DNA of 64,000 bases, from NCBI RefSeq assembly GCF_036507355.1, contig NZ_AP027877.1. One strand, 5' to 3'. The translations under genes were made by a program, and so were the position numbers. Source of the DNA: Escherichia coli (GTDB lineage Bacteria > Pseudomonadota > Gammaproteobacteria > Enterobacterales > Enterobacteriaceae). The notes under the pieces were generated by a model, which saw nothing but the letters and a program-made list of their open reading frames with translations, was not told where the DNA came from and did no database searches. Of this stretch, positions 54,655-54,763 are shown one piece after another. How positions within the stretch are numbered: position 1 is the first letter of the stretch; every line of letters starts with the position of its first letter.

Positions 54655-54662
54655 TCCGCCCC

Positions 54663-54699
54663 CTGGGTGTATATACAGTTATGCTGTGAGTATATACAG
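54663..54699. promoter_or_regulatory. tandem LexA SOS boxes in lexA promoter
   Basis: CTGGGTGTATATACAG (54663-54678) and CTGTGAGTATATACAG (54684-54699), each a CTGT-N8-ACAG palindrome. Confidence 0.75.
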
Positions 54700-54763
54700 C
54701 AAAAGGCGATTTTGGAACCATAAACTGCACAATAAACCAGAGATTTATCGAATTCTGGAAGGG

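Follow-up and report, generated by a model that had tools for sequence, protein, structure and literature searches.

Two tandem LexA operators in the dgkA-lexA spacer of Escherichia coli correspond to the known lexA-dinF operator region

The closest described system is the lexA promoter found in E. coli K-12, whose operators I and II go back to Brent and Ptashne (1981) and to Little, Mount and Yanisch-Perron (1981), both as cited in PMC7440846. The 20-bp LexA consensus is TACTG(TA)5CAGTA, with a 16-bp core of the form CTG-N10-CAG (PMC6590174). For a sequence identical to the one analyzed here, two functional LexA operators and negative autoregulation have been reported (PMC7440846, PMC9210283). 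T-to-C half-site mutations abolish LexA binding in gel shifts and fully inactivate operator I or operator II; the two operators contribute equally, double knock-out ends repression, and operator mutations leave promoter activity unchanged in a lexA deletion strain (PMC7440846). Both sites appear in published lists: the distal one in Table 4 of PMC3009722 and the proximal one, assigned to the transcript 'lexA, dinF', in Table 7 of the same paper. Co-transcription of dinF with lexA is also documented elsewhere (PMC6590174), and ciprofloxacin induces lexA mRNA up to log2 3.48 (PMC11002266).

We analyzed a continuous 64-kb stretch of E. coli DNA, hereafter the window. Positions 54655-54763 are exactly the 109-bp spacer between dgkA and lexA, bounded by the lexA start at 54654 and the dgkA stop at 54764. 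The RefSeq gene order is plsB, dgkA, lexA, dinF, yjbJ, zur, and the genes that matter here are the following:

55132-54764, minus strand: dgkA, prokaryotic diacylglycerol kinase, 122 aa (open reading frame and Pfam)
54046-54654, minus strand: lexA, 202 aa (open reading frame; lexA in RefSeq)
52648-54027, minus strand: dinF, MATE family transporter, 459 aa (Pfam MatE, 1.8e-44; annotated dinF)

The cognate LexA repressor is encoded at the locus and is intact. The lexA product carries the Pfam domains LexA_DNA_bind (1.2e-31) and Peptidase_S24 (1.1e-36), is 100% identical to K-12 LexA (202 of 202 residues), and has hits among solved LexA structures at E = 1e-129; these hits include 3jso, 3jsp and 3k3r, the complexes of LexA with operator DNA. 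On the same strand, 18 nt separate the lexA stop from the dinF start, and the weight matrix scan of the 64-kb window described below finds no further match of at least 12 bits near dinF. The dinF start itself differs between records: the K-12 long form (1380 bp, 459 aa) begins 18 nt after lexA, while the RefSeq PGAP annotation of O145 strain RM9872 places the start 54 nt further downstream, giving 1326 bp (3378-4703 of locus L001).

The original prediction described two 16-bp boxes lying 5 bp apart just upstream of lexA. Both are present as quoted: on the plus strand, 54663-54678 reads CTGGGTGTATATACAG and 54684-54699 reads CTGTGAGTATATACAG. Since the gene and its operators lie on the minus strand, a strand correction to that prediction, we give them below as they read on the gene strand:

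54684-54699, minus strand: distal (upstream) LexA operator, CTGTATATACTCACAG (sequence, matrix, conservation, literature)
54701-54682, minus strand: distal 20-mer, TGCTGTATATACTCACAGCA, at about -20 to -1, with the -10 hexamer inside
54663-54678, minus strand: proximal (downstream) LexA operator, CTGTATATACACCCAG (sequence, matrix, conservation, literature)
54680-54661, minus strand: proximal 20-mer, AACTGTATATACACCCAGGG, from about +2 to +21, within the 5' UTR

The proximal box ends 8 nt before the lexA ATG, and the distal box lies 29 nt from it. The gap between them is TTATG (54679-54683), which sets the centers 21 bp apart. Both boxes match the CTG-N10-CAG core of the SOS box. The stricter pattern CTGT-N8-ACAG, which had been claimed for both, holds exactly for the distal box only: the proximal one reads CTGT-N8-CCAG on the gene strand (CTGG on the plus strand), one mismatch away. 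From sequence and literature together, it is nearly certain that the E. coli lexA-dinF promoter has its two LexA operators in these two palindromes, each predicted to bind one LexA dimer.

How the boxes sit on the promoter can be read from the following elements:

54712-54717, minus strand: -35-like hexamer TTCCAA, 3/6 to TTGACA, inferred by position
54689-54694, minus strand: -10 hexamer TATACT, within the distal operator at -13 to -8, read from the sequence
54681, minus strand: lexA-dinF transcription start (+1), derived from the numbering of PMC9210283
54662-54666, either strand: Dcm site CCAGG, which overlaps the proximal operator at its 3' end

TTCCAA and TATACT are spaced by 17 nt and form a sigma-70-like promoter on the gene strand, with TATACT ending 7-8 nt short of the transcription start. 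The start follows from the Dcm target cytosines of the lexA region, numbered +17, +45 and -116 in PMC9210283: these correspond to the second C of CCAGG/CCTGG sites, at 54665, 54637 and 54797, each of which yields +1 = 54681. On this numbering the distal box occupies -18 to -3, over the -10 hexamer, and the proximal box occupies +4 to +19 within the 5' UTR, abutting the G-rich ribosome-binding region. In the figure legends of PMC7440846 and PMC9210283, too, a -10 site is marked next to or inside the operators. Sequence and literature place both boxes where a bound repressor would interfere, one over the -10 and the other just past the start. When 54500-54900 was scanned with generic models for sigma-70 promoters and terminators, neither turned up; the scan missed the lexA promoter because the -35 matches at only 3/6 positions, and we assign the promoter by position and literature. 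We also looked for structure, or a dgkA terminator, by folding the RNA of 54712-54790, which did no better than shuffled sequences (z = -0.42), and within 54700-54800 no intrinsic-terminator-like hairpin separates the lexA promoter from the dgkA stop (54764). Judged from sequence alone, transcription may read through from dgkA into lexA.

Scoring the boxes calls for more than a short pattern. CTGT-N8-ACAG with at most one mismatch has 19 matches in the window against 16.9 expected, showing no enrichment, and of CTG-N10-CAG there are 23 where 12.6 are expected, mainly unrelated G+C-rich sequences. These loose patterns are too permissive, and we therefore used a symmetrized 20-bp LexA weight matrix in their place, built from 17 boxes of PMC3009722 Table 4 with lexA omitted, and scanned the 64-kb window. 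The original prediction had proposed a LexA matrix scan as its check, and the two boxes come out first and second in the window: 19.53 bits for the distal box (exact p = 1.5e-7 per position) and 18.49 bits for the proximal box (exact p = 2.8e-7 per position). Both values fall within the range of the 17 training sites, 12.5-29.0 bits. About 2e-7 pairs of such quality within 40 bp are expected by chance per 64 kb. The Berg-von Hippel heterology index, computed from the same 17 sites, gives 6.43 and 7.99 for the lexA boxes, inside the training range of 0.27-8.94. Presumably the published indices of the two boxes are about 6.3 and 8.3. Both boxes also lie below the site criterion of HI<15 quoted in PMC11002266.

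The third-ranking position in the window, CTGTATATTCATTCAG at 36374-36389 (20-mer 36372-36391; 16.9 bits), sits in the divergent spacer between ssb (35684-36220, minus strand) and uvrA (36475-39297, plus strand). It is the known SOS box shared by uvrA and ssb, listed for uvrA in Table 7 of PMC3009722, and therefore serves as an internal positive control for the matrix. Two further positions, 22694-22713 (11.7 bits) and 13677-13696 (11.0 bits), were set aside as chance-level matches, with 0.65 and 0.87 such sites expected per window. Elsewhere in the window, Rfam matches at gathering threshold mark the Hfq-binding sRNA sraL (32280-32420, plus strand, 151.5 bits), a SECIS_2 selenocysteine insertion element presumably belonging to fdhF (11912-11966, plus strand, 87.1 bits), and naRNA4 (14435-14505, minus strand, 75.2 bits).

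Within E. coli the region is practically uniform. Comparison with the published lexA operator, also put forward in the original prediction, shows 100% identity to K-12 MG1655 over the 141 bp that span the dgkA-lexA spacer. Of 5426 complete E. coli genomes, 5425 match an 851-bp query comprising lexA and its upstream DNA, with O145 strains closest at 99.9%; the 109-bp spacer, too, occurs in 5425 of the 5426 and is at least 99% identical in 5373. One complete genome lacks a match to the lexA region, and among the 5425 that match, one has the region on a record labelled as a plasmid; either may be an oddity of assembly or labelling. Taken with the published demonstration of two functional operators and the co-transcription of dinF, the K-12-identical regulatory DNA supports the earlier proposal that the lexA-dinF operon is autoregulated.

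To follow the layout beyond the species, we ran a LexA protein scan with one genome per species and took the closest 80 loci, which represent all major Enterobacterales families. Upstream DNA is included for 79 of the 80 listed loci, and the comparison rests on those 79. Two CTGTAT-N7-CAG boxes lie within 70 nt of the start codon in 74 of the 79 listed loci, and in those 74 listed species their distances to the ATG are 8 and about 29 nt. All 74 listed two-box loci share one and the same distal 16-mer, which fits a double constraint, as this 16-mer would have to serve as operator and -10 at once. The proximal box has 10 variants among the listed loci, with CTGTATA and CAG kept and the center and right-center varying. 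Measured over the alignment footprint in the listed loci, mean column identity to the window is 0.996 for the distal and 0.888 for the proximal box; it is 0.92 for the 8 nt next to the ATG, 0.81 for the -35 hexamer, 0.67 for the 5-bp gap, 0.54 for the promoter spacer and 0.48 for the DNA further upstream. Both boxes are therefore conserved above the flanking non-coding DNA (0.48-0.55). A TTNNNA-type -35 is found at constant distance, most often as TTCCAA (25 listed loci), TTCCCA (16), TTTTCA (11) or TTTCAA (10).

In five listed loci one of the boxes, some 10-50 nt before the lexA start, is degenerate:

Photorhabdus, L062 and L065: CAT in place of the distal CAG
Ca. Pantoea persica, L078: CTA in place of the distal CTG
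Arsenophonus nasoniae, L082: proximal box lost entirely
Metagenome-assembled genome (MAG), L041: TTT in place of the proximal CTG

Several of these are insect- or nematode-associated symbionts. The degenerate boxes may reflect relaxed SOS autoregulation or, in the MAG, sequence error.

These data also bear on whether the boxes are repressor sites in the first place. Their central (TA)n resembles a -10, the distal box does hold the -10, and CTGT-N8-ACAG with at most one mismatch is no more frequent in the window than expected (19 against 16.9), all of which would suit chance matches or A+T-rich, TATA-like promoter DNA. That explanation is extremely improbable: for the full-length matrix scores taken jointly, the number expected by chance is about 2e-7; CTG and CAG at the outer ends, needless for a -10, are invariant across families in the listed two-box loci; the proximal box lies past the start site, in a place where one expects no promoter element; and in published mutagenesis LexA repression and intrinsic promoter activity come apart (PMC7440846).

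A third candidate lies further upstream in the same spacer:

54725-54740, minus strand: third CTG-N10-CAG, CTGGTTTATTGTGCAG, at about -59 to -44, upstream of the -35; 'putative operator III' of a database

If it too bound LexA and added to repression, the promoter would have three operators. It does match CTG-N10-CAG, and a putative operator III is carried in the database cited by PMC7440846. Its score, however, is 5.41 bits, a level at which about 8.8 sites are expected per 64 kb; its heterology index of 14-17.7 is outside the training range; and its column identity among the listed loci, 0.55, compares with a background of 0.48. Mutation of operator III has no effect, and the site is described as 'not functional for repression' (PMC7440846). 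We consider a third operator very improbable and reject it on the weak score, the background conservation and the published mutagenesis, keeping the two-operator assignment.

Why lexA should have two operators is a separate matter, on which the spacing of the boxes has a bearing. Their centers are 21 bp apart in 62 of the 74 listed two-box loci; 4 others have a distance of 20 bp and 8 one of 19 bp, and these 12 are without exception Erwiniaceae (Erwinia, Pantoea, Tatumella, Mixta, Rosenbergiella):

20 bp spacing, upstream of position 1501 in each: L040, L042, L047, L059
19 bp spacing, upstream of position 1501 in each: L051, L055, L056, L066, L068, L069, L070, L072

Judging from these sequences, exact two-turn helical phasing does not appear to be universally maintained, whereas the two-box layout strongly does. 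The tandem arrangement could serve cooperative binding: two dimers on one helix face, two turns (21 bp) apart, would make the autoregulatory switch steeper and faster than a single site would allow. The spacing of 21 bp here and in 62/74 listed species is as this would have it, a Hill coefficient of 1.5 +/- 0.2 has been measured for PlexA, and earlier literature speaks of 'moderate cooperativity' (PMC5152588). A Hill coefficient of about 1.5 could, we infer, also stem from the LexA monomer-dimer equilibrium. The 12 of 12 listed Erwiniaceae at 19-20 bp are about 35-70 degrees off phase and yet retain both boxes. In vivo there is 'no evidence of interdimer cooperativity', although this has not been formally tested with purified components, and a single-operator promoter of matched strength equals the wild type in induction, kinetics and fitness (PMC7440846). 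Cooperativity is on balance an unlikely reason for the layout, though the most credible of the alternatives weighed here.

One of the operators could instead have a second job, serving another regulator or coupling the promoter to growth phase through Dcm methylation of CCAGG. The Dcm site overlaps the proximal operator, where LexA binding inhibits Dcm, and is methylated in stationary phase only (PMC9210283), and CCWGG is kept at the proximal box in 48/74 listed species. Against this, the remaining 26/74 have no CCWGG and keep the box all the same; 5mC alters neither lexA expression nor SOS induction (PMC9210283), and there is no known second factor (PMC7440846). We regard a second job of this kind as quite improbable. 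More broadly, the second operator may have an undiscovered function: a regulator, a growth-phase input, a buffer against operator mutation, or a role limited to certain conditions. We entertain this because the layout is kept in 74/79 listed species even though a single operator of matched strength suffices (PMC7440846), and rate it as improbable, somewhat behind cooperativity. If it were true, the 19-20 bp spacing of the Erwiniaceae would mark a lineage in which helical phasing is dispensable.

Two LexA-bound operators lend themselves to a simple scheme. LexA on the distal operator (-18 to -3) would sterically keep RNA polymerase off the -10, and LexA on the proximal operator (+4 to +19) would block open-complex formation or promoter escape. 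Because the controlled gene encodes LexA, the regulation is negative autoregulation: in undamaged cells LexA would hold its own synthesis at a set level. Upon DNA damage, RecA-stimulated self-cleavage of LexA should empty the operators and raise lexA and dinF transcription, and the fresh supply of LexA would then allow quick shut-off of the SOS regulon once the damage signal ends. The lexA operator is the core of SOS negative feedback: it sets the LexA level and with it the threshold at which DNA damage induces repair and mutagenesis, as well as their shut-off.

The locus is the textbook E. coli lexA operator, among the most thoroughly studied of bacterial operators, and the original prediction recognized it correctly from the bare sequence. 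The observation is confirmed, its interpretation is supported, and both are already known, having been on record since 1980-81 for exactly this sequence. Our small addition is the cross-species tally, namely two boxes in 74/79 listed loci, a distal box without variation, a spacing of 19-20 bp in the Erwiniaceae and the single-box exceptions, which bears on the question of why lexA has two operators.

Set beside the known systems, the locus shows no difference from operators I and II of the K-12 lexA promoter, with the same spacer, flanks, LexA and gene order. The operators of plasmid colicin genes overlap each other and are reported to bind cooperatively; the lexA boxes, in contrast, are separate, with a gap of 5 bp. 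Among SOS promoters with several operators, Salmonella recN has three boxes, and lexA is also counted there as having more than one (PMC8072944). Single-operator SOS promoters such as recA, sulA, uvrA/ssb and umuDC have the same 20-bp motif over or beside the promoter; lexA differs from them in having two operators 21 bp apart in front of the gene for its own repressor, which closes a feedback loop.
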